A DNA stretch of 64,000 nt from a bacterium (GCA_021799485.1 JAJZAK010000008.1:5569-69568), one strand, 5' to 3'; shown: positions 3,576-64,000, counted from the stretch's first letter. Made by a program: numbers and translations. The notes: a model not told the origin generated them from the letters alone.

Positions 3576-3583
3576 CCTAAGCC

Positions 3584-6544: not shown

Positions 6545-6550
6545 GGCGCG

Positions 6551-48515: not shown

Positions 48516-48529
48516 GGATCCGTTTTTTC

Positions 48530-48613
48530 TGGGCAGGGCGGGAATCGAACCCGCACGGCCTTGCGGCCGAGGGATTTTAAGTCCCTTGCGTCTGCCAGTT
48601 CCGCCACCTGCCC
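48530..48613 (-). tRNA. tRNA-Leu (anticodon UAA), type II with a long variable arm
   Basis: Reverse complement GGGCAGGTGGCGGAACTGGCAGACGCAAGGGACTTAAAATCCCTCGGCCGCAAGGCCGTGCGGGTTCGATTCCCGCCCTGCCCA folds with a 7-bp acceptor stem, U8, a CTTAAAA anticodon loop, a long variable arm and a GTTCGATTC T-loop. Confidence 0.8.
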
Positions 48614-48702
48614 GTGTAGGAAATTCAAGGATTTTTTTGAGCGCGGGGTCTAAAAGTTACACGGATGTGGCCAAAATGCGGCCAAATCCGGGAATGCGTG
48701 TT

Positions 48703-48784
48703 CATGCGTGTAAAGGATTTTACCCTTTTTTACACGCATGGGCCTGGATGCGTGTCAGCGGGGGGCGAGTAGTCCCTTGCGTCT
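48703..48784. repeat. 12-bp inverted repeat (CATGCGTGTAAA...TTTACACGCATG) plus a GGCGAGTAGTCCCTTGCGTC repeat copy next to the tRNA
   Basis: Perfect 12-bp arms at 48703-48714 and 48729-48740. A 19-20-nt element shared with 59204-59223 includes a 12-14-nt match to the tRNA-Leu D/anticodon-arm sequence. Confidence 0.45.
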
Positions 48785-48840
48785 TGGTGGTGGAGCTCCT
48801 TCTTGGTAGGGAGTTGGGGGCATAAGATGCTTAACGAAGC

Positions 48841-49134
48841 CTATCGTTGTAATTTGGGATCGTTGGGTAATCGCCCATGAGTTTCAAGGTGTGCGAGCCA
48901 TTGGTAGTAGCTCTCAGCCATTATGATTGCGTCCTCTAAGTGCACGCCATGTCCGCTTTTATCGGCCGCACGCATGAGGAACTCGATTCGCATCTTGGCC
49001 AACTCGATGGCTTTGTTGACCAAGAGTTCGCGCCTTCGTGCCTTCCGGTCAAAATACTGTCCCACCAGGGCGACTATTCCCGAGACGATTGCGCCGGTCA
49101 AGGAGGCCGTCAGGATCGTTTGGATCACAGTCAT
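48841..49134 (-). CDS. hypothetical small membrane-anchored protein
   Basis: MTVIQTILTASLTGAIVSGIVALV TM helix followed by a charged helix. Lower-GC codon usage. Confidence 0.3.
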   Translation of the reverse strand: MTVIQTILTASLTGAIVSGIVALVGQYFDRKARRRELLVNKAIELAKMRIEFLMRAADKSGHGVHLEDAIIMAESYYQWLAHLETHGRLPNDPKLQR

Positions 49135-49145
49135 TATGCGCCTTC

Positions 49146-50054
49146 CTATGTCGGCTCGGAGGATGGCTCTGGGGGTGCGATAGCCGAAGGGATATCTTGC
49201 TTGCTGAGGAAGGCCAGGAACTGCTGGCACATGGATAAGCTGGCGAGTGCCTCGGAGCGCGTGGCGGGATGGCCCGAATGAGGTCCTATGGAAGCGAACC
49301 CCTTCAGTGCGTCATAGAGTTTCTTCGTGTTGTCGCGTCGGAGCGATTGATCCTTGTCGCCATCCAAGGTTTTGATATATCCCCTGAATGGCTCTCCTAG
49401 GCCCTCAACGGCCTTTCTGGCCTCCATGAGGGTGCCGGGATAGTCGCCACCCAGGAAGCGACGCTTGGCGTCGTTGATATGGGCCCAGGAGGAGGCGAAT
49501 ATCTTCCTGTTGACGTCGTCTTTCGGGAGGACAACCTCAATTGGCAATATCTCAGCGTAGTTCCATCGACCCAGGACCTCTATCCACTCAGCTTGCGAAA
49601 CTTGGAAGTCGCTTCTACCATCTCGAACGAGATCGGCCTGCAACCAGAAGATGGATTGGACCTCGCTCTTCTCCTTGGCCACTTCCGCACACATGAATTG
49701 GAGACCAGCGGAGAATCCTACTCCACCACCATCCCGATACTTCTCGATTTCATGCACGGTTTCCCAGTCGAGGGATAGGACCAATTGGTCCTGCCACTTG
49801 TTGTGTGGATGGAACTCCATGGGGTAGGGAGGGGATTGCAGGCAAAGGCGGGAGAGCGGTCCCAGGTAGCGATCTCCTTGCGAAGTTCGTAATAACATTG
49901 TGCCCTCGATCCCCAAGACGGCGATTACGAAGGGATGCGTGCTCGTGGCGGTAACCCGGAAGACGATAGTCGGCCTGGCGGCATTGGGGAGGCCGTATAC
50001 GCCGGCCACTTCGACCTCAAATCGCGAATTGAGCCTGCTCTTATATGTTGCCAC
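49146..50054 (-). CDS. hypothetical protein (302 aa) in the lower-GC patch
   Basis: Long ORF with atypical composition for this genome. No motifs recognised. Confidence 0.4.
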   Translation of the reverse strand: MATYKSRLNSRFEVEVAGVYGLPNAARPTIVFRVTATSTHPFVIAVLGIEGTMLLRTSQGDRYLGPLSRLCLQSPPYPMEFHPHNKWQDQLVLSLDWETVHEIEKYRDGGGVGFSAGLQFMCAEVAKEKSEVQSIFWLQADLVRDGRSDFQVSQAEWIEVLGRWNYAEILPIEVVLPKDDVNRKIFASSWAHINDAKRRFLGGDYPGTLMEARKAVEGLGEPFRGYIKTLDGDKDQSLRRDNTKKLYDALKGFASIGPHSGHPATRSEALASLSMCQQFLAFLSKQDIPSAIAPPEPSSEPT

Positions 50055-50063
50055 CCCGATCCT

Positions 50064-50140
50064 CGTTTGGCGATTCTAGTAAATCATCCCCAGATGACGT
50101 GTCCGCGCAAGGAGAAAAGTCCTTTACGTCCTCAACGCGG
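50064..50140. repeat. about 80-nt repeated element, copy 1, with a palindromic core GATTCTAGTAAATC, upstream of the 302-aa minus-strand gene
   Basis: About 75% identical to 59165-59240. Lies 10-85 nt upstream of the start codon at 50054. Confidence 0.5.
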
Positions 50141-50851
50141 GACTGGGCGCCGCATCTGGATCGGGAGCCCATAGGCGTCCCGTTCCTCGCCCGCGGCCTT
50201 GATCGTGGCCTCCGGCCGCCATGTCGCGGCCGTGACGCAGGCCACGACCGCGTCCAATACGTCGTCCTCCTGCAACTTGTTGCGGGGCCACGAGCCCGAC
50301 GCCTTGGTCACGGCCACGTCTAGGCCCGGCACAAAGCATCTCAGAAGCGCCCGCCGGGCCCGCAGGCCATCTTTCTTCTTCTTGCCGATCATCAGGGGAA
50401 CGCCGCCATTCAGGGCCGCAAAGCAGGTCTCGGGATGCACCTCCCAGATGCGGCCGGCGCTCCCAGGTTGGGTCATCAGATAACGGTCTACCTCGTCAAT
50501 CTTCGGCATGATCGCGAATGCCTGTCGCGACAGCCCCTTCCCGCAGAGTTCCCAGTGTAGGCGGTTGGCCTTCTCGTAGGTCTTGGCGGCAAGAACGGGC
50601 CTGGGAGGCGCCGGGAACACGCACATCCAGCGCGCGCCCAGGGCTTTGCGGGCGAGTAGGTCAACCGCCCTACCGTCACGCTCGCCAAGGCCGATCGGGA
50701 TGTCCACGGCGACGTGGGCGGCATCCTTGGCGGCGTCGATCGCGTCCGCGAACGTCGAGTGAACGCCGACCTTGACCGTCAACGCGCGCGCCGAGCCCGT
50801 ACCCATGGCTAGGCACCATCCGCCCCGGCAACCGTCGATTCCGGCGACCAT
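50132..50851 (-). CDS. DUF429 family protein (predicted RNase H-like nuclease fold)
   Basis: N-terminal MVAGIDGCRGGW matches the DUF429 signature (GIDGC.GGW). Confidence 0.55.
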   Translation of the reverse strand: MVAGIDGCRGGWCLAMGTGSARALTVKVGVHSTFADAIDAAKDAAHVAVDIPIGLGERDGRAVDLLARKALGARWMCVFPAPPRPVLAAKTYEKANRLHWELCGKGLSRQAFAIMPKIDEVDRYLMTQPGSAGRIWEVHPETCFAALNGGVPLMIGKKKKDGLRARRALLRCFVPGLDVAVTKASGSWPRNKLQEDDVLDAVVACVTAATWRPEATIKAAGEERDAYGLPIQMRRPVPR

Positions 50852-50893
50852 CTTGTGCGTGGAGGTGCTGCCTGTCGAGGGGATATGTTGCCT

Positions 50894-53800
50894 TCAGCTA
50901 CGAGCTAAAAAATCAGCGGTTGTATTCCGAACGAGCTTTTCGTGGTAGGCTTGATTGGAGTAGGTCTTCAAGCAATCATAACAGGCCATTTCGCAGGTGC
51001 ACTGAGAGCAGATTTCTGCGCTTTGCGTCACGACCGACGCCCAAGCGTCCATCGCTTGCTTTACAAACCCCGCGCCGCCGGGCGTAAGGTCAAAGAAGAT
51101 TAGTTCGGGACGTGGTCGTGATATTTTCTGACCGAGCCATCGCCAGGACACTCCGATGTCTTGAGACTCGACGTCCAATACCCTGCAAATGCCTCGCTGA
51201 AGCGCATATGCGAGGGACTCGACAGACGGAGGCGGGGCTATTGGACGAGCTATCAAACAATAGCTTTGGAACACATGCCCATATGATATTTGCCGCCATA
51301 GCGGGTGGCCGCAACTGGCAGTGCCAGAGAACACACGAAGCCGTTTGTGTTTGCGTTCGGTTCGCGAGCTAATCTCCGGCTCGCTGGATCCACATGTCGG
51401 ACAGAGACTAAACCCACGCGCTTGCGGTCCGAGGTTGTATCTAAAGAGACTGCCCTCTTCTTTCATAGCCAATCGGAACAGGCCGTTGTCTTTGAACTCA
51501 GGATCCTCTACTGCGTCAATAAACTGCGTGACAGTTTGGCGCTGCCGCAACAAAGTTCCACGTCGAAATCGTTCGGCTCCGCCACCCTTGGAATCCAGAC
51601 GGACACTAAAGGCGGCCGGCTGGATATATGGCTTGATATCCTGTATGGTGATCGCGCGCCCGCACACACTGCACGAGACCTTGAGCGCGTCCTGCGTTGG
51701 AGCCGTGCGTATTTGCTCACAACTCCTGCATCGAGAGAACCAGCGACGGACCGGGACATCCGAATTGCCCATAATGTAAAGTCCTGCGCTCGTGAAAACC
51801 TTCTTATGCGCAATAACCTGTGCCCCTGGCGCAAATTCAGCAATTGCCAACCCACGTTCACGACTCAGTTCTACGTCGGAGTCTCTCGACCATCGAGTCT
51901 TTCCTGTTTCAAGACTAACAACGTCGAGCGGGAATGCGTATCGTGGCAAGAAACCTTCTCTCGCCATGATGTCAATAACGTTGCTTCCAAGCAACTCTTT
52001 GATAGAACGCTCGATGTCGGCAAGATGTTCGCCAAGCGCAACAAGTCGACCTCGTTCGGCGACTAACGCGGCAAGCTCTTCACCAAGCCGATTTATAACA
52101 TCACGGTATGATGATATTGCTCCTTCGCGCGCCTCGACGAATCCGCCGGCCGACGTAGCCACGGCTTTCCCAACTTCGGTATGAAATATCTGGACTTCAT
52201 TTTGCGCTGCCAGCCAAGCAATGAAGTCGAGAAATGTATCTGTGGGGCGTGCTTGAATCCACCCCGTTGGAATATTGCGGCGGGAATCAATAGGAAGGAA
52301 AACCTCGAGACGGATTTTTTGTTTGATTGTATCGCCGAGCACGCGCTCATCGCGGATTTTGATCCGCAAGAAATCCGCAAATGCGACTGCATTGAAATGA
52401 CGTTGCGCGATAATGCGATTGTCTACGAACACGGATGGGGTGCGGACTTCGCCTGACATCAGGAGTTGTGGCTTACTCCAAGCGTCAGAGTCATACTTCG
52501 TTCTCCGACACATGGTGACGCATACGGCGTTTTTATCCTTGCCTCTTCCCGCGCGACCAACTCGCTGGATATAACTCGCGCTGCTCGGGGGGGCATTTCG
52601 CAGGAGGACCTTTTGGAGGTCTCCAATATTGATGCCCATCTCGAAGGTGGTTGTACTACTTAGCAGGTTTAGTCCCTGCGCCCGGAAATCATCCTCGATC
52701 GTTTTAGCAAGGTCCTTGTTTATTTGTGCCGTGTGTTCCTCTGACCGTAGAGTGCTGAATGTCACTGAGCGATCGCCTGCTACCCACCTAGCGATAAGGT
52801 TGGCGTCGTCGGGATTAAACGTCGCTGCCCCTAATCTGCCAAGACAGCCCTTCTTCGGGCAGCAGCCTCGCGCGGAAAACGTGGTCACGATACCACAGCG
52901 ATCACATACGAATCGCGCCGTAGCCTTCCTCACAAAAATGCGTTCATGGTCGAGTTTCCATTCACCGCGGGACGGAATCAAAAGGACTTGCGTGATTAAG
53001 AATTGCCAGATCGCTTCCGCGATAGCGAGGATGTCCGTCGGCGATTTGCCAGTGAGCCGTCGAATGTAATCCGTGAAGTAGTTGTCGCGGTAAGAGCCGT
53101 CCACATTCTTTTGCGGCGTCCAGCCTACCGCGTTCCGACGACCTTGTCGTTCATGTAGCAGGGCGATATCAGCTGTAATTCGCCCAAAGGCTGGCGCATC
53201 AGGCAAGACGCGTCCCCTTGGCAGAGTGAATATCTTTCTCTGGCGAACGTACGCCAGAAGTGATTGAAGAGCCGCCGCCGAGTCTTCATGTGTTAAATGG
53301 CTGGGCTGAAGTAACGCATGGAACTTGTCACGTTCCGCCGCGGTCGTCTCGTACTCGACGGTCAGTAAACCGAAGTCTTCGGCTGATTCTCGCGCGGAGT
53401 CGGGGACGCCGAAGTATGCAAAAACCTCCGCTACCCACAAGTCCCGCTCGCGTTTTTTATCAAGCTGCTCCTCCGGCTTTCGCGAGGCCGGTAGAAATAG
53501 ATTCGGATCAAACGTGCTGGAAGCAGGGTCTGTGGATTCCGCGAGCCGCTCTCCCAGCGATATAAAGTCAATATGCTCGCCATCTTTAATGAGCGATACT
53601 ATTTTGCGGCCGAGATCATAACCGAAAGTCTCCTCCTCAAGGAGGGACGGAAACGCTGCGGCGCGCTGGCGGTTATCGGTAAAGCAAAGGAGCTTCCGGG
53701 CACGCCTCTCCGCCGATGAGGACGAAATATTGAAATGCGCCAGCGGAATCGCCATCGCGAGGCCAACTTCATCATCTGATTCTTGGAATCGTCTTACTGG

Positions 53801-55774
53801 CTCGAGGCCCGAAGCGTTGCGGCCGCCACAATTCGGACAGCAAGGCAAAAGCTCCTTATCACCACCATAAAGTTTTGTTTGGTCCTTGGACCGCTTGGAG
53901 TGCGGACATTGCCTGTGGAACACTAGCAACTCCCGAATCAGCGGCGGCGCACACTGACAATCGTCTCCGGCGTCGTTGTACTTCCGCTTCCCGCATATGG
54001 TGCACCACGGCACCCTTTCCGGCCTGTCAATGAGGTCTGCATCCTCCTCTTCATCCGTGGCGGCCTGTGACGGGAAAGGAAGCTCGTCCTGGATGCTGAA
54101 GTAGGTCCAGAACGAGTCGGCGGCCCAGCCGAGTTCAGTCGAGAAGGCATCAAAGCATGGCTTCGGCTCATCAACACCAGCCTCTTGATTGCGAGCACGG
54201 CGCGGCCCGAGGTCCTGCAGCGCGCCATAAAGATAACCACACTTTCTACACGAAACGAGTTCGACGAGCTGTGACCGCATCCCCACGGCATGGCAGTCAG
54301 GACAGTAACCTATTGGAGCGTCGGGCAGATGGTTCCGAGTAACGAACAGGCTTGGTTTACCCTCTCGTCGCGCAGGGCAGCGCGGCGATAAGCAGATGTG
54401 GAGCCCATCTTCGGCCTTCACAAAGTAGTGGAGGCGCGTTGGCAGTAAATCCTCAGTCGCTCCAAGTTCCTTTGCGGAAGCCACAACTTCGAGTAGCGCG
54501 TTAAGTGCTTCTTCGGCCTTTGGACTTTTTGGCCACAATTCGGCCGCAACGGACGCCAAGGGTTTCGGTACCGTCAGGATATCTTTCCTGAGTTTGTGAA
54601 GGTTTTCATCCCGAAGAAGTCCATCGAGGAGGTTCGTCCCTGGCGGCAAGCCAAGACTCTGCCCGGGGTCCTTCTTTGCTCGAACGTCTGTGGCGGCGCG
54701 GATGTACTGATCGGGGGACGGGCGAATAACCGGATTGGTGATCACCGGTGTGGCGATAGTCCCGTATATTGGGCTGCGCTGGTCAAATCCTGCGCCGAAC
54801 AACGCTGATGCAAATTCTCTAACCTTTTGAATACTCCGTGGATCATCCTTCTTGCCCAAAGTTGCGGACGTAGCGATACAACACACCTTATTCGCGTTCA
54901 GCCGATCCCTGAGGCGCCTTAGGAGAAATCCGATCTCCGTTGCCTGAACGCCGCGGTAGGCGTGAACTTCATCTAGCACAATGAACTTCAATCGTGCGTT
55001 TTCAAAGATGGGCGCATCAACGGGCCGCTCGAGGAGGTACTCCAACATCGAAAAGTTCGTTATTAGGATATGCGGCGGCGCAAGACGAATCTGGTCTCGG
55101 TGATTGAGACGATTTGAAATCTCTTCGCGGTCGCGGCGAAGTTGCTCGCGGAGTTGTCGCGATACTTCCCGTTGAAGCTCCTGTTGGCCGTGCATTTCCA
55201 CTTCGAGCCTTCTGCGAAGTGCATCTTCAAGCCGATTCTGATAATCCCCCTGCGTGCCTGGTGTCTGCCCTGAAAAGCGCGCGAATCGGATCGACGGATA
55301 CTCTCGAAGAATTTCTTCCCATTCGCCGAGTTGATCGTTTACCAGCGCGTTAAGGGGGTAGATAATGATCGCACGAAGCCCCGGCGTGCAGTCCCGGATG
55401 AGATCATCGAGAATCGGGATCTGATAGCAGAGCGTTTTACCACTACTCGTTCCAGTGGCTACTACTACGTTGCCGCCACTCAAGACAGCTTCCAGGGCTT
55501 CGGTTTGATGCTTATAGAGCGTGCGGTTGGACAATCGTCGTTCAACGGTTTGTATCGTCTTCTTATGAAGGTCAAGGGACGTTAAGGGCGCCCCAGGCGC
55601 ATACGCTTGGGAGCGTTCCATGTAGGGGCCGCGGACGAGCGCCTCGACATTGAGTTTCTCTTCCCAAACGCTTTTCGCGTGGCTGAACGCAGGATGAAAG
55701 CGATAGCGCGCCTTGAGCAGGTCAAGGTAAGGGACAAACACATCTGATCTGAAACGGGAAGTTAGGGATTCCAT
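50894..55774 (-). CDS. large SF2 DEAD/DEAH-box helicase with multiple zinc ribbons and a DUF1998/MZB-like C-terminus (DruE-like)
   Basis: YKHQTEALEAVLSGGNVVVATGTSSGKT (motifs I/Ia), FIVLDEVH (DEVH), TTTFEMGINIGDL and YIQRVGRAGR (motifs V/VI). At least 6 CxxC pairs. Terminal CSQCTCEMACYDC cluster. Confidence 0.7.
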   Translation of the reverse strand: MESLTSRFRSDVFVPYLDLLKARYRFHPAFSHAKSVWEEKLNVEALVRGPYMERSQAYAPGAPLTSLDLHKKTIQTVERRLSNRTLYKHQTEALEAVLSGGNVVVATGTSSGKTLCYQIPILDDLIRDCTPGLRAIIIYPLNALVNDQLGEWEEILREYPSIRFARFSGQTPGTQGDYQNRLEDALRRRLEVEMHGQQELQREVSRQLREQLRRDREEISNRLNHRDQIRLAPPHILITNFSMLEYLLERPVDAPIFENARLKFIVLDEVHAYRGVQATEIGFLLRRLRDRLNANKVCCIATSATLGKKDDPRSIQKVREFASALFGAGFDQRSPIYGTIATPVITNPVIRPSPDQYIRAATDVRAKKDPGQSLGLPPGTNLLDGLLRDENLHKLRKDILTVPKPLASVAAELWPKSPKAEEALNALLEVVASAKELGATEDLLPTRLHYFVKAEDGLHICLSPRCPARREGKPSLFVTRNHLPDAPIGYCPDCHAVGMRSQLVELVSCRKCGYLYGALQDLGPRRARNQEAGVDEPKPCFDAFSTELGWAADSFWTYFSIQDELPFPSQAATDEEEDADLIDRPERVPWCTICGKRKYNDAGDDCQCAPPLIRELLVFHRQCPHSKRSKDQTKLYGGDKELLPCCPNCGGRNASGLEPVRRFQESDDEVGLAMAIPLAHFNISSSSAERRARKLLCFTDNRQRAAAFPSLLEEETFGYDLGRKIVSLIKDGEHIDFISLGERLAESTDPASSTFDPNLFLPASRKPEEQLDKKRERDLWVAEVFAYFGVPDSARESAEDFGLLTVEYETTAAERDKFHALLQPSHLTHEDSAAALQSLLAYVRQRKIFTLPRGRVLPDAPAFGRITADIALLHERQGRRNAVGWTPQKNVDGSYRDNYFTDYIRRLTGKSPTDILAIAEAIWQFLITQVLLIPSRGEWKLDHERIFVRKATARFVCDRCGIVTTFSARGCCPKKGCLGRLGAATFNPDDANLIARWVAGDRSVTFSTLRSEEHTAQINKDLAKTIEDDFRAQGLNLLSSTTTFEMGINIGDLQKVLLRNAPPSSASYIQRVGRAGRGKDKNAVCVTMCRRTKYDSDAWSKPQLLMSGEVRTPSVFVDNRIIAQRHFNAVAFADFLRIKIRDERVLGDTIKQKIRLEVFLPIDSRRNIPTGWIQARPTDTFLDFIAWLAAQNEVQIFHTEVGKAVATSAGGFVEAREGAISSYRDVINRLGEELAALVAERGRLVALGEHLADIERSIKELLGSNVIDIMAREGFLPRYAFPLDVVSLETGKTRWSRDSDVELSRERGLAIAEFAPGAQVIAHKKVFTSAGLYIMGNSDVPVRRWFSRCRSCEQIRTAPTQDALKVSCSVCGRAITIQDIKPYIQPAAFSVRLDSKGGGAERFRRGTLLRQRQTVTQFIDAVEDPEFKDNGLFRLAMKEEGSLFRYNLGPQARGFSLCPTCGSSEPEISSRTERKHKRLRVFSGTASCGHPLWRQISYGHVFQSYCLIARPIAPPPSVESLAYALQRGICRVLDVESQDIGVSWRWLGQKISRPRPELIFFDLTPGGAGFVKQAMDAWASVVTQSAEICSQCTCEMACYDCLKTYSNQAYHEKLVRNTTADFLARS

Positions 55775-57885
55775 AGGTCATTCACCACTCGCGCACCGCG
55801 CGACTTCAGGTATCGATAGATTTCTCCGTTCGCTTCCGCGGGCCACTCAATTTGGACGAAGGGGGGCTCTCCCCGTTGGTCAACGATGGAAACTGGCGGC
55901 AATTTGTCCTTCATGAGGTGGTACATCTTCCGATAGAGGCCCCACAAGATCGATGGGTCACCACAAAACCTCATCGTTAGCCAAGGTGAATGAGCTTTCA
56001 ATATGGCGCGCGATTCAGCGATCGCCCAGCATCGTCCGCGTTGAATAATCAGGCGAACATCCAAGTACTTTTTAAGCAGGTAATACGAAACCTTCGTATC
56101 CGGAGCTATCACATGACTCGCAAGCGCAAGCTCATCCCACTTGAGTCCTTCGCGTGATTGAGCGAGAAGGAACCAAAGCAAGTAGTTCCCGGGGAGGGCT
56201 CGCCAGCACCGCTCAATCTCAATCCTTGGGTTCTCGAACCAAAGATCATATGCGAATCTGATTCCGAGCCGTGTCGCTTCAATCGTTAAAATTCGGTGAC
56301 CTTGGAGATCCATCGGCTCGAAGAACTTTCCCAACTCCCTGAGATTTGTGGCCTTCCCGGTGCGCACCTTCTCTAGAAGCGGACGTTTTGACCAGCTCCA
56401 AAAGAACAATTCGTAGTCCTCGAGGGCTTCTCCCCGTCTTTCCCACGAGCCGCCAGCTCTATGGCCGTCGATTTGGACAATGAAGTTTTCCTGGACGGTC
56501 TGCTCGCTGTTCGCGAAGTAGCCAAGCGGGACGAGTACGCACACCAAAGGAAATTTCTCAATGTTCAGCGAGTCGCCTTCCCGCCGGAATCGGGCAGAGT
56601 GCCAACCCTGTCCGACAAATAGTCGCGCCTGAACGCGCTTCCGAGTTCGGAACCGCAGCTCAGTAGTTTTAGCCCCATCGGCTATCGAGGCAGCCGCGAA
56701 CCTATCCTTGGGCCAAAGCCGCGTGAGATAGCAAGAAGTTCCGTCCGGCAGTTCATATCGATCATTCGCCGGGCAGTCCGCCTCTTCAAATCCCCGTCTG
56801 ACGAGCTGCACGGGCTTCGTGGCGATGAGCACGTAGCTCCGGAGCGGCAACTCCTCACGATTGGTATTTATCCAATAGCCGCCACGTTCCATATCGAAGA
56901 GGCCCCAGGGGTTGAGCCCTGGGAGCCGCACAGCTTGTGAGTCTGATTGAGCTGTTATGGTCGCTGGTATCGCGGGTGCGAACGCGGCCGAATCGATCGC
57001 TATTTCTGCAGGTGTCGCATTTGCCGCGAGAGGCCGCCCGGCAATGTTCCATGTCGCTGGGAGACGTTGGCGGTCCAAGCCGGGCAGGTGCAGCACTAGA
57101 GAACAGTTCTGGTCCTTCCAGACCAGGCGGGGCCGATCTCGGAACAGCGATTCAGGGTCATTCGGTTTAAGAAACTCGGCCGTCTCCGGCACTTCATCGA
57201 AGTACTCGACTCGGAGCAAACACGCCTGCTTCAATTGATCAACCGTCAGGGCCGGATCGCTTGCTAGACAACGCCTCGCATCGAGCATTTCACGGATAAT
57301 TTCAGTGCCGCCCTGTCTGTTGGAGAGCAGGAATGATCGCAGCCGCCGACGGCTTCCCGATAACCGTGTTACGGTGGTCTCCCATTCGTCGCCGGACAAC
57401 GACTGCCAATCTTCACGTGCGGCAGCCCACTCACAGAGATCGAGGAAGCCGTCCCATAGGGAAATTGGTATCCCAATATGGTGGACTGCTGAACCGACGT
57501 AGGACATTCGGGCATCGTTGCCAAGCAGCTTAAGGCCCCATCGCTGGACGGCGGAGCTATAGACTCTGTTAAGTCGATTGTACGCTGCAAGAGGAAGAGT
57601 CTTCTGGGGACATCCGACAGCTTCGGCAAACCGGGGCCAAAACGTGGCGTCTTCGTACTCGAAGAATGCATGTCCCCCATACAAGACCACCAAGCACGCT
57701 GGGAACGTGTCGGGCTTCGTGCGCCATAGGTCCCATGCTTGGCGAGTAACGCCGATAAATCTGTCCCATTCATTACGGTTCGGAATCAGTGGTAGAAGAT
57801 ATCCCGAGCGTTCTCGGACCGTGGCTTCCTGAGAATCGAGAAATTTACGGAAGGTGGACTCAAATGCGATGAGCTGCGTTGTCAT
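55762..57885 (-). CDS. 707-aa protein of unknown function, translationally coupled to the helicase (DruH-like candidate)
   Basis: 13-nt overlap with the downstream helicase gene. No recognised domains. Confidence 0.45.
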   Translation of the reverse strand: MTTQLIAFESTFRKFLDSQEATVRERSGYLLPLIPNRNEWDRFIGVTRQAWDLWRTKPDTFPACLVVLYGGHAFFEYEDATFWPRFAEAVGCPQKTLPLAAYNRLNRVYSSAVQRWGLKLLGNDARMSYVGSAVHHIGIPISLWDGFLDLCEWAAAREDWQSLSGDEWETTVTRLSGSRRRLRSFLLSNRQGGTEIIREMLDARRCLASDPALTVDQLKQACLLRVEYFDEVPETAEFLKPNDPESLFRDRPRLVWKDQNCSLVLHLPGLDRQRLPATWNIAGRPLAANATPAEIAIDSAAFAPAIPATITAQSDSQAVRLPGLNPWGLFDMERGGYWINTNREELPLRSYVLIATKPVQLVRRGFEEADCPANDRYELPDGTSCYLTRLWPKDRFAAASIADGAKTTELRFRTRKRVQARLFVGQGWHSARFRREGDSLNIEKFPLVCVLVPLGYFANSEQTVQENFIVQIDGHRAGGSWERRGEALEDYELFFWSWSKRPLLEKVRTGKATNLRELGKFFEPMDLQGHRILTIEATRLGIRFAYDLWFENPRIEIERCWRALPGNYLLWFLLAQSREGLKWDELALASHVIAPDTKVSYYLLKKYLDVRLIIQRGRCWAIAESRAILKAHSPWLTMRFCGDPSILWGLYRKMYHLMKDKLPPVSIVDQRGEPPFVQIEWPAEANGEIYRYLKSRGARVVNDLWNP

Positions 57886-58157
57886 ATCACCAACTTGATG
57901 GATGGGCGTGAACGTCAGTCCCCTTTGGGCCCATGGATGAGAGCCTCGATGGGAACCACCACGGCAGGTATCCGATCATTCCGTCAGACAGCATTTCGAT
58001 ACGCCGCACATTTTACCGCTTCTATGTGTGAATCGGGTGTCGAAATGTCAGCCTGCCGGCAGGCGTGTTGCCGCGATGCAAGTGGCCCTTCACGGCTTGC
58101 TACCCGAATTTTATGCGGCTCAAGGGTGACGTGGCGCCCCTTCTGAGTAATAGTCGG

Positions 58158-59132
58158 TCAGCGATCAAGGTACCAAAGGGTTTTAATGTCCTCTGAGTCC
58201 ACGCCTTTGGGCGCTGCCGCGGGGGGTTCCAATCGAACCATGCGTGCCGAGTCGCAAAGTTTACCGCCCAGTAATTCCTTCACGGGCTCGGAGAAAATCA
58301 AAGGAGTCTCCGGACTGACTTCTAGTAGACGCGAAGCGAGATTGACGGGGTATCCAATGTAATCGAGACGGAAACGATTGGGATTCTTCGGATTATAAAC
58401 GCGCAGCCTACAAACTTCACCGAGTGTGATTCGTGCGCGGAAGCCACCGGGGCGAGGTGATGGCCATTGAAGGATAAGAGATCTCATTCTCTTGATCAGC
58501 TCAAGTGTGTCGCGCAGAAATATTTCAGCGACCTCGGGAGCTGTCGCGTCGTCGGAAAGTTCCTTTACGAACATGACGCCATCGCCAAGCAATTTAGCGA
58601 AATATGATTTATCCAGACGCAATGTGGAAAACTCTGCATAGATATCCGTCATTGCGTTGCGTAAGGCAGTCTGGGTGAGCGTGGGGCGCTTCAGCCACGT
58701 AGAGAAAGAGATAATATCTCCGAACGCCACGATAATTTTTTTACGGGCCGCTTTGACTCTGGGTTTCGGAACGGCAAAAGAAGATAGCTCAATTGGCTCG
58801 TTTGGCCCTCCAACTTCTTCGGTGCCGTCCCAGCGCACGCCGCAACCCGGACAATCCAGCTCTAGTTTTCTGGCAACTTCAAGGACCTCATCAGAACGAA
58901 GGTGTTGTTTGCGCTTGATCTTTCCCCAACTCTCGAGCGCGCTTTGAATGATGTATTGCAAGGGGTGGGGAGTCGTGAGCCAAACGGCTTCTCCGTCTTC
59001 CCAGGGCATGCATGTGGCGCAACATTGCGCTTCCTCGAAGATTTTCTCGCGCAGTGCGTCAGCATCGCGCTCGATTAATTCGTTTTCGGACCTAGAGAGG
59101 GCCATTAATTCCTTTGCTCCGTCACCATTCAC
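58158..59132 (-). CDS. class III nucleotidyl cyclase with a Cys-rich N-terminal domain
   Basis: IIVAFGDIISFST (metal-binding Asp of the F.D..GFT motif), LLGDGVMFV (second Asp) and GYPVNLASRLLE (VN.ASRL motif). N-terminal CCATC...CPGCG. Confidence 0.7.
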   Translation of the reverse strand: MNGDGAKELMALSRSENELIERDADALREKIFEEAQCCATCMPWEDGEAVWLTTPHPLQYIIQSALESWGKIKRKQHLRSDEVLEVARKLELDCPGCGVRWDGTEEVGGPNEPIELSSFAVPKPRVKAARKKIIVAFGDIISFSTWLKRPTLTQTALRNAMTDIYAEFSTLRLDKSYFAKLLGDGVMFVKELSDDATAPEVAEIFLRDTLELIKRMRSLILQWPSPRPGGFRARITLGEVCRLRVYNPKNPNRFRLDYIGYPVNLASRLLEVSPETPLIFSEPVKELLGGKLCDSARMVRLEPPAAAPKGVDSEDIKTLWYLDR

Positions 59133-59164
59133 GACCTTATTGGTCGCGCCTCGCGTCGTTTGAT

Positions 59165-59240
59165 GATTCTAGTAAATCATCGCCAGAGGGCGTCTTGGCG
59201 CGAGGCGAGTAGTCCCTTGCGTGCAATGCGTCCGCCTCCT
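59165..59240. repeat. about 80-nt repeated element, copy 2, with a perfect palindrome GATGATTCTAGTAAATCATC, upstream of the cyclase gene
   Basis: 7-bp inverted arms with a 6-bp spacer at 59171-59190, followed by GGCGAGTAGTCCCTTGCGT, which is also found at 48764-48784. Confidence 0.5.
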
Positions 59241-59356
59241 TAAGCCGTGGAGACGGCACTGCCAAGGCCCCAGCCAGGGCGTGGGAGGGGTGTCCCAGGT
59301 TCTAGCCCAAGTGCTTTAATCTGTGCGGGTCGGAAGGTTGGTAAAATCGAACTACA

Positions 59357-60508
59357 ATGATGCGCGTTGACATCAAGCCCGAGCTTCTAAACTGGGCCTG
59401 TCAGCGGGCGGGACTCACCGCCGAAGCGATCAGCCATCGCTTCCCGCAGTACATGGCCTGGGTGAGTAAGGAAACCCAGCCAACCTTTAGGCAGATTGAG
59501 CAGTTCGCCAAGGCGACCTACACCCCGGTTGGTTTTCTATTCCTTCCCGCGCCTCCCGTCGAGCAAGTTCCGATCCCTGATTTTCGCACGGTTGCAAACA
59601 AGAAGGTTCATCGACCCAGCCCAGACCTGCTGGATACGATCTATATCTGCCAGCAACGACAAGAGTGGTACCGCGATTATGCCCGATTGTTGGGTGAGCC
59701 GTCGCAGTCGTTCGTAGGATCGGCACGCATCGGTGCCAGCGTTGTCCAAACTGCCAAGGCTATCCGGGATAAACTCGGCCTCAACATCCAAGAGCGTCAA
59801 CAGATTGCGACGTTCGTCGATGCGCTGCGCCGCCTAATCGAGCAGGCCGATTCGATGGGGATCATGGTCATGTGCAGTGGCGTTGTTTCGAGTAACAACA
59901 GGCGTCGCTTGAACCCGGAGGAGTTCCGGGGCTTTGCCATGAGCGATCCCTTGGCGCCACTCATTTTCATAAATGGTTCCGACACCAAGTCGGCACAGAT
60001 GTTCACGCTTGCCCATGAGTTGGCGCACATCTGGGCCGGGAAGTCTGGGGTTGACGACGCCCAGGCATCCTCCATCTCCGGCAACGAGGTCGAGAGGTGG
60101 TGCAACCAGGTAGCGGCCGAACTGCTCGTGCCGATGGCTTCTTTCCGGCCCGAATACGACAAGCACGCGGACCTCGACACCGAACTTCCGCGCCTTTCGC
60201 GGCGTTTTAAGGTGAGCACTCTCGTGATCCTCCGCCGGATGTTAGATGCGGGAGGGATTGCGCAGAAACAATTTTGGGATGCCTACCACGTTGAACTCGA
60301 ACGCTTATCTTCGCTACCTAAGCCCGATGGTGGCGGCAACTTTTACCTGACGACCGCAACCCGCGTCAGTAAACGGTTCGCCCGCGCAATCATCACGAAC
60401 ACCTTGGAGGGCCAGACTTTGCATCGCGATGCCTTCCGCATGTTGGGCTTCTCCAAGCTGGAGACCTTTCGGGAACTCGGGCGCGGACTTGGGGTGATCG
60501 TGAAGTGA
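59357..60508 (+). CDS. XRE-type HTH fused to an ImmA/IrrE-family zinc metallopeptidase (COG2856-like)
   Basis: N-terminal HTH region. HEXXH motif LAHELAHIW with a downstream Glu. Confidence 0.7.
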   Translation: MMRVDIKPELLNWACQRAGLTAEAISHRFPQYMAWVSKETQPTFRQIEQFAKATYTPVGFLFLPAPPVEQVPIPDFRTVANKKVHRPSPDLLDTIYICQQRQEWYRDYARLLGEPSQSFVGSARIGASVVQTAKAIRDKLGLNIQERQQIATFVDALRRLIEQADSMGIMVMCSGVVSSNNRRRLNPEEFRGFAMSDPLAPLIFINGSDTKSAQMFTLAHELAHIWAGKSGVDDAQASSISGNEVERWCNQVAAELLVPMASFRPEYDKHADLDTELPRLSRRFKVSTLVILRRMLDAGGIAQKQFWDAYHVELERLSSLPKPDGGGNFYLTTATRVSKRFARAIITNTLEGQTLHRDAFRMLGFSKLETFRELGRGLGVIVK

Positions 60509-61029
60509 CCTCGGCCGCGACCTATCTGCTCGATGCAAACGTTTTTATGCAGGCCAAGAACCTGCATTACGGACTCGATTTTTGCCCGGCTTTCTGGGAA
60601 TGGTTGATTAAGAACAACGCAGCTGGCCGCGTATTCAGTATCGAGAAAGTCAACGACGAGATTCAGGCTGGCAATGACGAATTATCGACCTGGGCGGCTC
60701 AACGTGGAGCCGGATTCTTCTTGCCGCCGGACCAGTCCTTGTTGTCGGTCTTGGCTCAAGTCAGTACCTGGGCAACGAACCATACTTGGGGGAACCAGCA
60801 ACGGTACTCCCAAGCCGCGATCAGCGCATTTCTTCAGGTAGCGGACTATTATATTGTTGCCCAGGCCCTCGCACATAAGCATGTCTTGGTTACGCACGAG
60901 GTTGCTGCTGCGACGATCAATAAAATCAAAATTCCCAACGCCTGCATCGCGCTCGGCATAAAGTGCATGACGCCCTATGAGATGCTTAGGCGAGAACGAG
61001 CGCGCTTCGTCCTTGGGACACATCCATAG
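60505..61029 (+). CDS. DUF4411-like (PIN-like) protein, 4-bp overlap with the ImmA-like gene
   Basis: N-terminal YLLDANVFMQAK acidic PIN-like motif. 174 aa. ATGA overlap. Confidence 0.5.
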   Translation: MTSAATYLLDANVFMQAKNLHYGLDFCPAFWEWLIKNNAAGRVFSIEKVNDEIQAGNDELSTWAAQRGAGFFLPPDQSLLSVLAQVSTWATNHTWGNQQRYSQAAISAFLQVADYYIVAQALAHKHVLVTHEVAAATINKIKIPNACIALGIKCMTPYEMLRRERARFVLGTHP

Positions 61030-62232
61030 TCAGGCCGCCATCTCCGCCACCCGCAGCGCGATGGGCCTCTCGACGGGGACAACGGTCCCGTTGACCGTGC
61101 CGTCCGACTTGCCGATCAGGCGCTCGAGGTGCTTGCCGTAGAGCACCGCGCTCGCTTCCTTGTGCCGCGGCGACAAGTGCCCGTAAACTTTTTCGACCAT
61201 CGACGGGCTCGTATGTCCGACGAGTGCCGCGATCGTCGCGAAGTCCATGCCACTCATCACCATGATGCTTATCGCCGTATGACGCAGGTCGTGCAACTTG
61301 AAGTTCGCGAGGCCCGCGCGCGCGACGACGTTCTTAAACGCCGTCCTCACGTCTCTGGAGGGGCCTGTCCCTTTGGGATTCGGGAAAAGCCAGGGGCATC
61401 CCATCTCCTTGGCGCGGTCGGCGGCCGCGTCGAGGATCTCGCAGGCGAGACGCGGAATCGGGATCCAATCAGGCGAGCCTTCCTTCGTTTTCTCAAAGAA
61501 CACGTATCCGTTCCTGCGGTCGTAGTTCTCCACGCGTAAACTCAAGACCTCGGTCCGCCGACGACCGATGAAAAGGAGAAGGCGTAGTGCGAGGCGTGAG
61601 CCCTCGAGCTTGAGCGTCTTGAGCGCGTCGAGGAAGTGGTGGAGCTCGTCGTCGATGAGGTGGCGTTTGCGTGTGCGTGCCTTTTCGCTCCTGCGTTTGA
61701 AGCGCGGGGCAGGGTGGAGTGGCAGGATGCCCCACTCGACGGCGCACGCGAGCATGCAGCGGATAACTGAAATTTCACGGTTCACGGAAGAACTCTGGAC
61801 CGTCCGCGCTGTGTTCTTCCGCCACTCCGTGGCGCGCTTCGAGTTGGCCAGCTCGCCGCGGAAGGGAGAGAGAATCTTCTCGCTTTCGCGCATCCCTCGG
61901 TAGCGGGAAAGCAAGCCGTTCGTGATCTGCGTCAGGCGCACGTTGCCTGACCACGCCCGGAACCGCTTCAGGTATCGCTCGACGTGACCGCGATAGGCGA
62001 GCGGATTGACATGCTCCCTCATGAATCTAGGCGTGAACTCGTCCAGGGTTGGGGCCTTGGTCGCGATGCCCAACTTGCCCAAGTTAAGCTCGGTCCGAAT
62101 TTGCGCCGCGAGAGCATCGGCATGCCGCCTCGTGCCAGCCTTCTTCTTGATTTTGACCTTTCGTGCGGGGTCCCAAACGTTCGCGTACCATGTCGTTGTT
62201 CCCGGCCTCTTCCAGATATCCGATTTTGCCAT
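61030..62232 (-). CDS. int: tyrosine-type phage integrase
   Basis: C-terminal catalytic region LHDLRHTAISIMV...GHTSPSMVEKVYGHL (R-H-R-Y family). Confidence 0.85.
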   Translation of the reverse strand: MAKSDIWKRPGTTTWYANVWDPARKVKIKKKAGTRRHADALAAQIRTELNLGKLGIATKAPTLDEFTPRFMREHVNPLAYRGHVERYLKRFRAWSGNVRLTQITNGLLSRYRGMRESEKILSPFRGELANSKRATEWRKNTARTVQSSSVNREISVIRCMLACAVEWGILPLHPAPRFKRRSEKARTRKRHLIDDELHHFLDALKTLKLEGSRLALRLLLFIGRRRTEVLSLRVENYDRRNGYVFFEKTKEGSPDWIPIPRLACEILDAAADRAKEMGCPWLFPNPKGTGPSRDVRTAFKNVVARAGLANFKLHDLRHTAISIMVMSGMDFATIAALVGHTSPSMVEKVYGHLSPRHKEASAVLYGKHLERLIGKSDGTVNGTVVPVERPIALRVAEMAA

Positions 62233-62311
62233 CGCATCCTCCTGTTATCGTCTCGTTTTGATACGCATGACACGCAAGGTTGGCCAGTCCACCAGATCCC
62301 GCCTTGCGTGG

Positions 62312-62524
62312 TCAAGCCTCATCCCGTGTCGTCCCACGGCGACGTTCGACCGTCTCGACGTTGAACTGGTCGAGCCACGACGCCATCTTTCCCTCGTCGA
62401 ACAGCAGTCTTCCTCCAACCTTCATGTGAGGAACCTTCTTCCTGGAGGCCCAGTTGTATAGCGTGCGGGGTGACAGACGCGTCATCTCGGCCGCCTCAGC
62501 CACGGTCAGAAGTTTTCGTGCCAT
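62312..62524 (-). CDS. xis: AlpA/excisionase-like HTH DNA-binding protein
   Basis: LLTVAEAAEMTRLSPRTLYNWASRKKVPHMKVGGRLLF is a typical phage Xis/AlpA HTH. The start is probably MARKLL. Confidence 0.5.
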   Translation of the reverse strand: MARKLLTVAEAAEMTRLSPRTLYNWASRKKVPHMKVGGRLLFDEGKMASWLDQFNVETVERRRGTTRDEA

Positions 62525-63614
62525 CGCTTTTCCTCCTATCGTTGTGCGTGCGGAAACGGCAGGCGTCGGAACAGAACGAGGCCCACGGTTTCTTCGGCGT
62601 GAAAACGGCACCGCAGCGGTGACACGCCCGGGGACGCACGATCGCGCGGGCGGACGTCTTGGGCGCGTGTCCTGGTCGGGTCATGTCCTGGTCGACGGGC
62701 GTGGACGCGGTGTTCGTGGGTGACGGTGTCGACGTGGACGTGGACGATGTCGTCATGTGCTGGCCGAACTCGACATTCGCGAGAGCGGCGCGTGCCTGCT
62801 CGACGTACTCGTGGTTGAGGTCCGAGCCCACGAAATGACGTCCGAGGGTCTTGGCGGCGATGAGTGTCGTCCCCGATCCACAAAACGTGTCCATGACGAC
62901 GTCACCTTCTTTTGTCGCGTACGAAACCAACCACTCGGCGACGAGCGATGACATGCGCGCGGGGTGCGTCGAAACTTGGTCCTGCGTTTTGTGGATGACG
63001 AGTACGTCGGCGTCCTGACCCAGGAGCAGGGACATCGCGTCCTTCGCGGACATGCGGCGAAGACGCTCGAGGGCTGGTGCGATCACGTCACCAGGGTCCG
63101 CGCCGTTGACCGCGTACTTCGGCCTCTTGTCGATGCCCGACCAGTAACTCGGCCTGCGCACACCGTCCTTGTTCACGATGTACGCCCTCGGGTCCAGGAC
63201 CGCGTGCCAGACCGTCTCCGTCATGCGTCGGAGGGTCTTGTCGTCGTTCTGCGGATGCGCATTCGATTTCAGGATCGTGAGTTGCTGGACGATGTGGAAG
63301 CCACGTTCGACGAGGGTCTGTGGGAGGAGCCACGCCGTCGGCGATAGGGCGCCGTCGATCGTCTGCGGCATGAAATTCAGGAAGATGTGGCCCGTCGGCT
63401 TCTTCAACACGCGTTTCCACTCGTCGATCACAGGGATCATGTGCTTGATGAAATCTGCGCCCGCGAATTGTCCGAGGTCCACGGGGTCGTCCGAATACTT
63501 GCGCATTCGCTCGAACGGCGGGCTCGTGATGATCGCGTCGATGCTCGCGTCCGGCACGCGGGGGAGGTGCGCGGCGTCGGCCACTACGACTTGGTTGAGC
63601 CAGTTCGTCGTCAC
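62496..63614 (-). CDS. DNA methyltransferase (N6-adenine/N4-cytosine, beta class) with a C-terminal Thr/Ser-rich linker and zinc ribbon
   Basis: IDAIITSPPF (motif IV) upstream of THPARMSS...DVVMDTFCGSGTT (motif I), i.e. PF01555-like order. C-terminal CHRCG...CSDAC. Confidence 0.8.
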   Translation of the reverse strand: MTTNWLNQVVVADAAHLPRVPDASIDAIITSPPFERMRKYSDDPVDLGQFAGADFIKHMIPVIDEWKRVLKKPTGHIFLNFMPQTIDGALSPTAWLLPQTLVERGFHIVQQLTILKSNAHPQNDDKTLRRMTETVWHAVLDPRAYIVNKDGVRRPSYWSGIDKRPKYAVNGADPGDVIAPALERLRRMSAKDAMSLLLGQDADVLVIHKTQDQVSTHPARMSSLVAEWLVSYATKEGDVVMDTFCGSGTTLIAAKTLGRHFVGSDLNHEYVEQARAALANVEFGQHMTTSSTSTSTPSPTNTASTPVDQDMTRPGHAPKTSARAIVRPRACHRCGAVFTPKKPWASFCSDACRFRTHNDRRKSDGTKTSDRG

Positions 63615-64000
63615 GCGTGCGCAACCCCCAGTGTCGACGCGACTGTGCGTATGCGCTCCGTTGCCTTGGCGGCATAGTCAGGCGAGAGTTCGCTGCCGAT
63701 CCATCGGCGGCCAAGACGTTCGCAGACGACGGGGATCGTCCCGCTGCCCGTGAACGGGTCGTATACTCGTTCCCCTGGGAAGGTGAGCAACCGCACGAGG
63801 CGGCCTGCGAGTTCTTCGGGAAAGGGCGCCGGGTGCCACGGGATCGCGGTTTCGGGCTTGATCTGCCAGACCGAGCTCGTCGCGGCCATGAACTCGTCGC
63901 GCGAGATGTCGGACTTGCCGCGTCTGTCGCCGTCCTTGCGAAAGATGAGCACGTACTCGTGCCGGACGCGAACGCGCGGCTTGTTCGCCGAGCACCAGCT
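63611..64000 (-). CDS. second DNA methyltransferase (N6/N4 type), 5' end outside the window
   Basis: HEYVLIFRK...WHPAPFPEEL...RVYDPFTGSGT is the C-terminal catalytic half of the same family. The reading frame is open to the window edge. 4-bp overlap with the downstream methyltransferase. Confidence 0.6.
   Translation of the reverse strand, partial: SWCSANKPRVRVRHEYVLIFRKDGDRRGKSDISRDEFMAATSSVWQIKPETAIPWHPAPFPEELAGRLVRLLTFPGERVYDPFTGSGTIPVVCERLGRRWIGSELSPDYAAKATERIRTVASTLGVAHA

Follow-up and report, generated by a model that had tools for sequence, protein, structure and literature searches.

A predicted toxin-antitoxin pair of the VapBC52 type, with its own zinc peptidase, in a bacterial defence island

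Two overlapping genes, here called A and B, occupy positions 59357-61029 of a 64,000-nucleotide stretch of bacterial DNA (GCA_021799485.1, JAJZAK010000008.1:5569-69568; "the window" below is this whole stretch). We consider it probable that they form a protease-gated type II toxin-antitoxin (or abortive-infection) module of the kind described as VapBC52 in Mycobacterium tuberculosis. The parts of this assignment differ in strength. Judged from the sequences, it is very probable that the two genes are a toxin-antitoxin pair in which B is the toxin and A its direct antitoxin, and self-cleavage of A at a phenylalanine-arginine bond is somewhat favoured as the step that would release B. The proposal that single-stranded DNA (ssDNA) would be the trigger in this clade, which is without cysteine switch and GAF domain, is tentative and falls a shade short of even. 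The assignment is carried by homology of both partners to the M. tuberculosis proteins, by intact catalytic residues in each, and by strict pairing and overlap of the two genes across phyla.

The pair adds little that is new in kind: RefSeq routinely labels such genes "ImmA/IrrE family metallo-endopeptidase" and "DUF4411 family protein", the combination was predicted in 2009 and 2017, and a homologue has structures and a described mechanism. Its value is that it lets the mechanism from M. tuberculosis be projected onto a very large environmental clade, in which the self-cleavage motif and the C-terminal plug of the antitoxin are conserved. Two further findings are mildly useful, namely that the cysteine switch is not conserved in the environmental clade and that the pair recurs between hsdS and hsdR, a PrrC-like position.

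Homology of both partners to VapBC52

The features of the pair are as follows.

59357..60508, plus strand: open reading frame (ORF) A, 383 aa, VapB52 homologue and multidomain candidate antitoxin
59357..59566, plus strand: N-terminal domain of A (residues 1-70), putative toxin-binding XRE-like domain by homology to VapB52
59579..59587, plus strand: codons of D75-F76-R77, predicted self-cleavage site (between F and R) in the linker between N-terminal and middle domains
60014..60094, plus strand: zinc site, H220-E221-L-A-H224 (60014-60028) and E246 (60092-60094)
60329..60505, plus strand: C-terminal domain of A (residues 325-383), beginning GGGNFY and predicted by homology to occlude the toxin active site
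60505..60508, plus strand: GTGA, the GTG start of B overlapping the TGA stop of A by 4 nt
60505..61029, plus strand: ORF B, 174 aa, DUF4411 PIN-like nuclease, toxin candidate and VapC52 homologue

Homology to the VapB52-VapC52 complex (Rv2515c/Rv2514c; PDB 9vzy, also 9vzz; Singh et al., Nucleic Acids Research, June 2026, PMC13273310) was established for both proteins by sequence and profile searches. Protein A matched 9vzy_A over residues 8-346 with phmmer (1e-16), and a profile of 61 orthologues matched over positions 6-345 (1e-24). Protein B matched the "DUF4411 family protein" chains 9vzy_D and 9vzz_A at 1e-8 with phmmer and at 6.4e-9 with a profile. The gene order is also the same, with the antitoxin gene first and the toxin gene second.

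The characterized pair provides the functional background for this comparison. The toxicity of Rv2514c is relieved by the upstream gene, Rv2515c (Akarsu et al. 2019, PMC6504116). The two VapBC52 proteins form a 1:2 complex in which the N-terminal and C-terminal domains of VapB52 bind the toxin directly and block its active site; ssDNA induces self-cleavage at an FR motif, which removes the toxin-binding N-terminal domain, and the toxin cleaves tRNA (PMC13273310). VapC52 cuts tRNA in the anticodon or variable loop. An earlier, sequence-only reading of the window had proposed a protease-controlled toxin-antitoxin or defence pair here and had suggested testing a repressor or the PIN protein as the peptidase substrate. 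Its central proposal is supported by the intact PIN residues and by the homology and gene order shared with Rv2515c/Rv2514c; the peptidase target in VapBC52 is a different one, the protein's own N-terminal domain (PMC13273310).

Gene A, the candidate antitoxin

Both ORFs lie where the sequence-only reading placed them. ORF A opens with ATGATG, and gene callers choose either ATG, giving 382 or 383 aa. Its predicted layout starts with an N-terminal five-helix domain resembling a helix-turn-helix (HTH) and a linker. An ImmA/IrrE (M78) zinc peptidase comes next, then helical subdomains that are HTH-like and, at the C-terminal end, a further helical domain. In an AlphaFold2 model (mean predicted local distance difference test score, pLDDT, 76.5) the five helices of the N-terminal domain (residues 1-62) are confidently predicted and the linker (70-83) is disordered; the peptidase core and the helical subdomains follow, and the C-terminal domain is of low confidence.

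The peptidase assignment is firm. Residues 165-295 match Pfam Peptidase_M78 (IrrE N-terminal-like; E 4.6e-18, 65.6 bits against a cut-off of 22), and LAHELAHIW occupies residues 218-226. H220, E221 and H224 are invariant among orthologues and E246 is kept in 68 of 69; the zinc-site residues align to H216, H220 and E245 of VapB52. The best Foldseek matches of the model were CapP (7t5t), PprI (8sln), IrrE (3dti) and PrpR of M. tuberculosis (6cyy). CapP, PprI/IrrE and PrpR are relatives also reported for the middle domain of VapB52 (PMC13273310). A PADLOC scan returned capP (5.7e-15) and RmrA models (down to 1.9e-13), and the PHROG match was 2439 (1.9e-46). The sole NCBIfam match, to the spr1629 repressor/antitoxin family, was far below threshold (20 bits against a cut-off of 335), and membership was rejected.

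The sequence-only reading had described A as an XRE HTH joined to a HEXXH peptidase. The peptidase half stands as just described, whereas the HTH half could be recovered only indirectly, through orthologues and structure. Pfam found no HTH in A, even when residues 1-84 were scanned alone at E<=10. Among 61 orthologues, HTH_3 is detected in 6 and HTH_31 in 5. Residues 8-70 align with the N-terminal domain of VapB52, a domain that the crystal structure shows to be XRE-like and that has a toxin-binding role (PMC13273310). The modelled helices span residues 8-17, 22-28, 32-36, 44-54 and 58-62, with pLDDT values of 84-94 over residues 1-50 that drop to 74-79 over 51-70, and Foldseek gave a weak match to the Xre antitoxin 3omt (template modelling score 0.69, E 3.9).

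The putative cleavage site follows directly. In phmmer and profile alignments D75, F76 and R77 match the DFR of VapB52 column by column. D75 and R77 are present in all 69 sequences, and position 76 is Phe in 55 and Leu in 10 (Phe or Leu in 65 of 69). The motif falls in the segment 70-83, which is modelled with pLDDT below 50 and predicted to be disordered.

At the other end of the protein, the GGGN[FW]Y motif and the helix that follows it align to VapB52 (GGGNWY in that protein), and the C-terminal domains of the two proteins have the same length of 59 aa. With about 25 invariant positions among 61 orthologues, this domain is one of the most conserved parts of A, which fits occlusion of the toxin active site in the manner of VapB52. 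Its modelled helices, at low confidence, are 339-350, 356-363 and 368-377; the domain scanned alone matched no Pfam family.

Gene B, the candidate toxin

ORF B matches Pfam DUF4411 (PF14367) over its full length (E 2e-53; 180.9 bits, cut-off 23.5). Its start codon is GTG, the sole in-frame start upstream of the catalytic aspartate, and YLLDANVFMQAK corresponds to residues 7-18. The predicted catalytic acidic set is D10 (60532-60534), E52, D58, D114 and E132. Loss of these residues had been named beforehand as the finding that would count against a PIN-like toxin; all five are intact in B and each is kept in 97-100 of 103 diverse family members, VapC52 included. D10 aligns with D6 of VapC52, the residue mutated to obtain the inactive mutant used for crystallization (PMC13273310).

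The AlphaFold2 model of B has a mean pLDDT of 80.9. Its top 41 Foldseek matches are all PIN-domain proteins, led by FitB/VapC toxins and including uncharacterized archaeal PIN proteins and PIN-like protein-only RNase P. The PIN-like character proposed for B thus holds in both the Pfam search and the structural comparison. The PHROG match was 11126 (1.6e-33), and the family comprises 3,406 clusters at 50% identity.

Pairing, overlap and upstream region

We examined 80 loci with close homologues of B, taking one genome per species. In 79 of them the gene immediately upstream, on the same strand, is a homologue of A, and the remaining locus is interrupted by a contig end. The loci span more than 15 phyla, including Elusimicrobia, Chloroflexi, Acidobacteria, Planctomycetes, Actinobacteria, Desulfobacterota, Spirochaetes and Proteobacteria, and the closest relatives are from Elusimicrobia metagenome-assembled genomes from groundwater. 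The Pfam E-values and the pairing in 79 of 80 loci are far beyond chance.

Across phyla, identity to the window proteins is 52-83% for B (median ~66%) and 41-78% for A (best tblastn segment), and the two co-vary from locus to locus. Such conservation is unusually tight for a toxin-antitoxin pair and implies both strong constraint and horizontal spread. Homologues of the pair were found on 37 plasmids, of which 21 are conjugative, and on 8 IMG/VR viral contigs; many copies are chromosomal.

Of the 74 loci that could be evaluated, 68 have the stop codon of A overlapping the start codon of B, either by 1 nt (60 ATG and 1 GTG starts, for example TGATG) or by 4 nt (7 loci). In the window the overlap had been read as ATGA and is GTGA, with B starting at GTG. 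The arrangement implies that translation of B is probably coupled to that of A.

Upstream of A, the sequence allows one candidate promoter element.

59342..59347, plus strand: possible extended -10 (TGGTAAAAT; TAAAAT hexamer), ~9 nt before the ATG of A, read from the sequence

With low confidence, this element would give a leaderless or near-leaderless mRNA. No Shine-Dalgarno sequence adjoins the ATG of A, and some stand-alone orthologous loci have TAGAAT or TACAAT near the start of A. A sigma-70 two-hexamer scan of 58900-61300 found no promoter, and terminator-like matches there were at chance level.

Proposed mechanism

In the mechanism that we propose, transferred from VapBC52 by homology at 24-27% identity, A would be translated first and B would be translationally coupled to it. 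B would be a Mg2+-dependent PIN-fold endoribonuclease, most likely cutting tRNA. A would neutralize a B dimer in a 1:2 complex through two domains, with the N-terminal HTH-like domain as the main grip and the C-terminal helical domain as a cover for the active site. The same chain would carry both an ImmA/IrrE zinc peptidase and its substrate, the F76-R77 bond in the flexible linker. A stress or infection signal, which is ssDNA for VapBC52, CapP and IrrE, would lead the peptidase to cut off the N-terminal domain of A at F76-R77. The complex would then collapse and free B would cut tRNA and arrest growth, with abortive infection or post-segregational killing as the outcome.

Several observations weigh against this mechanism or against parts of it. 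Identity to VapB52 and VapC52 is only 27% for A and 24% for B, and expression of the genes, toxicity and cleavage are predictions from their sequences. B matched no PADLOC family at E<=0.01. The model of the C-terminal domain of A has low confidence, and alignment to VapB52 covers no more than the first ~20 residues of that domain. No operator was found: inverted repeats in 59100-59420 are short and unconvincing, and the upstream regions of 71 loci, many of which are the 3' end of hsdS, have no common motif. Phage resistance in M. tuberculosis was shown with VapC52 overexpressed and not with the native module (PMC13273310).

The most specific of these difficulties concerns gating. A cysteine switch has been proposed to hold VapB52 and CapP inactive until ssDNA binds. 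In A the corresponding switch loop, residues 228-243 between HEXXH and E246, contains no cysteine. The position of VapB52 Cys229 is Asp233 in A and Ser in 66 of 69 clade members, and Cys is not among the common residues at any position of this loop in the 69 sequences. Both the nature of the trigger and how tight the control is may therefore differ here. IrrE is stimulated by ssDNA yet has no cysteine switch, and some CapP homologues are also without it (PMC13228613, PMC10904395), so its absence weakens the proposed gating step and not the mechanism as a whole. As the zinc-capping cysteine is absent from the clade, gating is probably IrrE-like, being either looser or exerted through another loop residue such as D234, which is Asp or Asn in 68 of 69 sequences; the loop is modelled with pLDDT below 50 over 233-241. 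A also has no GAF domain, its model being all-helical with no strands after residue 205, so the ssDNA groove that lies between peptidase and GAF domain in CapP and IrrE has no counterpart. The basic residue seven positions before HEXXH (R90 in CapP) is Ala213 in A, as read by eye. The lack of the switch in a large environmental clade means that the gating step proposed for VapB52 and CapP cannot be general.

Restriction neighbourhood and alternative explanations

Type I restriction-modification genes are the sole recurrent neighbours of the pair in the 80 loci, arranged as hsdM-hsdS-[A-B]-hsdR. In 22 loci an HsdR-like gene is found within 4 kb of the pair. At least 15 of 79 loci (about one fifth) have the pair immediately next to hsdS and/or hsdR on the same strand, and 7 of 79 have it between both. 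The unrelated genomes with the pair between hsdS and hsdR include loci L003, L007, L013, L039, L055 and L072, among others (at about positions 1500-7500), and in such loci the hsdS stop codon is often overlapped by 1-4 nt. The copy in the window lies outside any restriction-modification operon.

The recurrent insertion between hsdS and hsdR supports a defence role over a purely addictive one. It also brings to mind the prr locus of Escherichia coli, in which the prrC anticodon nuclease gene sits between hsdS and hsdR, like the orthologous pair. The missing cysteine switch, together with the unusually strong conservation of the clade, means that the pair may differ from a simple VapBC52 copy. 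On a further reading the clade would be a PrrC-like second line of defence coupled to restriction; we regard this as unlikely. If it were true, a tRNA-cutting PIN toxin would be freed when restriction fails, and the trigger would be something other than a cysteine-gated ssDNA switch, for example DNA ends or ssDNA generated by restriction, or phage anti-restriction proteins.

Three rival explanations are each less likely than the VapBC52 model. The one that survives best, itself rather improbable, is that A acts mainly as a transcriptional switch, in effect a CapH-like repressor and a CapP-like peptidase fused in one chain. Its HTH would repress its own operon (B and, elsewhere, the downstream hsdR), and DNA damage or phage ssDNA would bring about self-cleavage and de-repression, so that B would be an induced effector and not a toxin made in advance and held in a complex. 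The PADLOC capP match and the best structural match (CapP 7t5t) agree with this explanation, as does the scissile Phe-Arg dipeptide, which CapH shares (PMC13228613). There is, moreover, a resemblance between the N-terminal domain of VapB52 and the controller proteins of restriction-modification systems (PMC13273310), and the pair adjoins hsd genes as often as described above. On the other hand, VapB52 itself uses its N- and C-terminal domains to bind the toxin and block its active site in a stoichiometric 1:2 complex (PMC13273310), and the highly conserved C-terminal domain of A fits a protein-protein interface better than a repressor. There is no conserved upstream operator or palindrome, and the HTH of A is too degenerate for Pfam to detect. 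A regulatory role and an antitoxin role are in any case compatible, since type II antitoxins usually autoregulate.

A second rival, which we judge improbable, is a plain addiction module that is blind to any signal and acts by post-segregational killing. A would simply be degraded faster by host proteases, with its peptidase domain serving as a scaffold. The location of the pair at the edge of an integrative element, its homologues on plasmids and the missing cysteine switch would suit such a module. The invariance or near-invariance across phyla of HEXXH, E246 and the D-F-R motif argues instead for a working peptidase and substrate site, and many copies are chromosomal, within restriction-modification operons, and not on replicons that need stabilization. 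The third rival depends on the local surroundings of the pair and is taken up with them.

Local context in the window

The genes and repeats around the pair are as follows.

61030..62232, minus strand: tyrosine integrase (Pfam Phage_integrase, 1.5e-21), convergent with B
62312..62611, minus strand: excisionase-like HTH_17 gene, overlapping the start of an N6_N4 DNA methyltransferase gene
58158..59132, minus strand: 324-aa ORF, divergent from the pair, with sub-threshold matches to Guanylate_cyc (Pfam, 3.6e-4) and Pycsar PycC (PADLOC, 2.7e-5)
50894..57885 (together with 50132..50851), minus strand: Druantia-like module with a 1,626-aa DEAD/Helicase_C/MZB protein (PADLOC DruE3, 5e-166)
48765-48782 and 59205-59222: 18-bp exact direct repeat GCGAGTAGTCCCTTGCGT, bracketing a 10.4-kb low-G+C Druantia-like segment

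The TAG stop of B (61027-61029) directly adjoins the stop of the integrase gene (TCA on the plus strand, 61030-61032), with no intergenic base and no terminator-like structure. The same pair-integrase arrangement occurs in two further contigs (L081 and L082), apparently the same element in other metagenome assemblies. The integrase adjacency emphasized by the sequence-only reading is real. As a conserved partner the integrase was rejected, since none of the 80 other loci has it and the type I restriction-modification genes recur instead; the association is specific to this locus.

Beyond the integrase (62312..63952, minus strand; 12953-21149 in L081) lie the HTH_17 gene, the N6_N4 DNA methyltransferase gene and a second methyltransferase gene. 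Past the window end, L081 continues with an AAA_25/DnaB_C-like protein, a 303-aa gene of unknown function and a 930-aa MmeI-type (type IIG) restriction-modification enzyme. The methyltransferases and the MmeI-type enzyme indicate that the integrative element carries more defence cargo past the end of the window.

A low-G+C tract (~0.55 against ~0.65) extends over about 48-61 kb and begins at a tRNA-Leu gene at 48.5 kb, which was the only match of an Rfam scan of 48000-64000. The window contains two exact copies of the repeat GCGAGTAGTCCCTTGCGT, a number that no shuffle out of 100 reached. Three intergenic regions (48750-48782, 50063-50129 and 59156-59222) contain longer, degenerate copies of 33-67 nt, each located just upstream of a minus-strand gene or tRNA. 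In minus-strand orientation, the first part of each copy resembles the 5' half of the adjacent tRNA-Leu (GACGCAAGGGACT). These repeats may be attachment (att) remnants of tandemly accreted islands, or they may be a shared promoter or leader element. If tRNA-Leu were the att site, the geometry would be unusual, given that the likeness is to the 5' half of the tRNA and that the island is found on the 5' side of its gene. The copy of GCGAGTAGTCCCTTGCGT at 59205-59222 may be an att-type boundary that separates the Druantia-like segment from the element bearing the integrase. The pair, between this right-hand repeat and the integrase, may then be the att-proximal cargo of that integrative element, which lies inside a defence island, and in the window it serves as a marker of that cargo.

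The 324-aa cyclase-like ORF may be an orphan or degenerate Pycsar-like cyclase; no obvious effector gene lies beside it. Upstream of the DruE-like gene an overlapping 707-aa ORF, in a DruH-like position, had no Pfam, PADLOC or PHROG match, and a DUF429 gene lies downstream; the module could be a type III variant whose partner protein falls outside current models. A functional link of the pair to the cyclase-like or Druantia-like genes was considered and rejected, as neighbourhood clustering of the 80 loci gave no such recurrent family. A 302-aa ORF (49146..50054, minus strand) with no Pfam or PHROG match lies between the repeat copies at 48750-48782 and 50063-50129, and looks like a minimal one-gene islet.

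The third rival, in which A is an ImmA-like anti-repressor of the adjoining element that cleaves the element's repressor after DNA damage and so induces excision, as ImmA does with ImmR in ICEBs1, while B is an unrelated passenger, can draw on the ImmA/IrrE family membership of A, on the position between a putative att repeat and an integrase in an element that continues with methyltransferases, the AAA_25/DnaB_C protein and the MmeI-type enzyme, and on the established control of excision of integrative and conjugative elements by ImmA/ImmR (Bose et al. 2008, as cited in PMC2701414 and PMC13228613), but it is very improbable, given that no separate Xre/ImmR-type repressor gene adjoins A (the sole nearby HTH gene being the HTH_17 excisionase-type ORF beyond the integrase), that A carries an HTH-like domain and a cleavage motif of its own in the same chain, that A and B are paired in 79 of 80 loci, none with this integrase, and that the two genes overlap and co-vary in identity.

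Comparison with known systems

The pair is not a canonical VapBC system, a candidate that we rejected. The antitoxins of those systems are small (~70-120 aa) proteins of the ribbon-helix-helix, AbrB, PHD or MerR type, and the upstream partner here is a 383-aa M78 peptidase protein. The likeness to PrrC of the EcoprrI type Ic restriction operon is one of position, in those orthologous loci where hsdS and hsdR flank the pair, and of activity, in that the homologous toxin VapC52 cuts tRNA. As an ABC-ATPase/HEPN-like protein, PrrC has no relation to the pair in sequence or fold, and it is masked by the restriction enzyme itself and not by a dedicated antitoxin.

RosmerTA (RmrT/RmrA; Millman et al. 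2022; PMC10440598) resembles the pair in having a toxin-paired antitoxin of ~370-400 aa with an HTH and an ImmA-type peptidase. The 14 PADLOC RmrA models that match A do so mostly in the peptidase part (~190-306), where the best reaches 1.9e-13, and one spans 36-304 at 3.4e-6. PIN-like partners of the ImmA antitoxin node are also found in the ImmA/Rosmer zone of the NetFlax network (PMC10440598). RmrT of Gordonia phage Kita, in contrast, depolarizes the membrane and is not a PIN nuclease (PMC10440598). RosmerTA was rejected as an assignment by the PADLOC models, as no RmrT model matches B at E<=0.01. With no PADLOC match for B and only regulator or antitoxin models for A, current defence-system callers would not label the pair.

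IrrE/PprI-DdrO of Deinococcus and ImmA-ImmR of Bacillus subtilis share with A an M78 zinc peptidase that cleaves an XRE-type HTH protein, and IrrE is also without a cysteine switch and stimulated by ssDNA (PMC10904395, PMC13228613). They differ in having a separate repressor as substrate and no toxin partner, in the GAF domain of IrrE, and in regulating DNA repair genes or mobile-element excision. CapH/CapP, from CBASS (cyclic-oligonucleotide-based antiphage signalling systems) and other immune operons (7t5t; PMC13228613), is closer. CapP is the best structural match of the peptidase core of A, over a Foldseek alignment of only 184 columns. CapP cuts CapH between F82 and R83 (PMC13228613), that is, at a Phe-Arg bond beside an HTH domain as predicted for A, and in both proteins HEXXH is followed by a flexible acidic loop. 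Substrate and protease are separate proteins in CapH/CapP but parts of a single chain in A, and the GAF domain and cysteine switch of CapP are both missing from A. CapP controls transcription, whereas the A homologue VapB52 holds the toxin directly. A CapH/CapP pair was rejected, as no small HTH gene flanks A, whose neighbours are the cyclase-like gene and B, and the GAF domain and cysteine switch are missing.

The combination itself was foreseen computationally. Makarova et al. (2009; PMC2701414) predicted COG2856-Xre proteins with PIN toxins, naming Rv2515c, and Matelska et al. (2017; PMC5499597) predicted a "three-component" toxin-antitoxin system of DUF4411.1 with HTH-DUF955. The window pair agrees with these predictions in the DUF4411 PIN-like gene downstream of a fused HTH-COG2856 gene and in four conserved acidic residues. 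The predictions differ in assuming a separate or fused Xre repressor-antitoxin as the substrate of the protease, on computational grounds only, and in that the F-R linker motif and the C-terminal domain were not identified. Our sequence-only starting point, which called such pairs predicted and poorly characterized, was right on the first count and outdated on the second, VapBC52 having been dissected in 2026.

VapBC52 remains the closest system. Both partners are homologous and in the same order. The antitoxins share an HTH-like N-terminal domain, an M78 peptidase with helical subdomain, a 59-aa C-terminal domain starting with GGGN[FW]Y, the HEXXH+E zinc site and D-F-R at the junction of N-terminal and middle domains, and the toxins share the PIN acidic set, including the D6 equivalent. 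The differences are the missing cysteine switch in A (Ser or Asp in place of Cys229), ~10 extra residues in B at 92-101 that are common only to its closest relatives, and the setting, which is an integrative element and a horizontally spread clade for the window pair and the core chromosome of mycobacteria for VapBC52; the window clade, moreover, is known from sequence alone. On these likenesses and differences, the pair is best classed among the VapBC52-type family, as a new and distant member.

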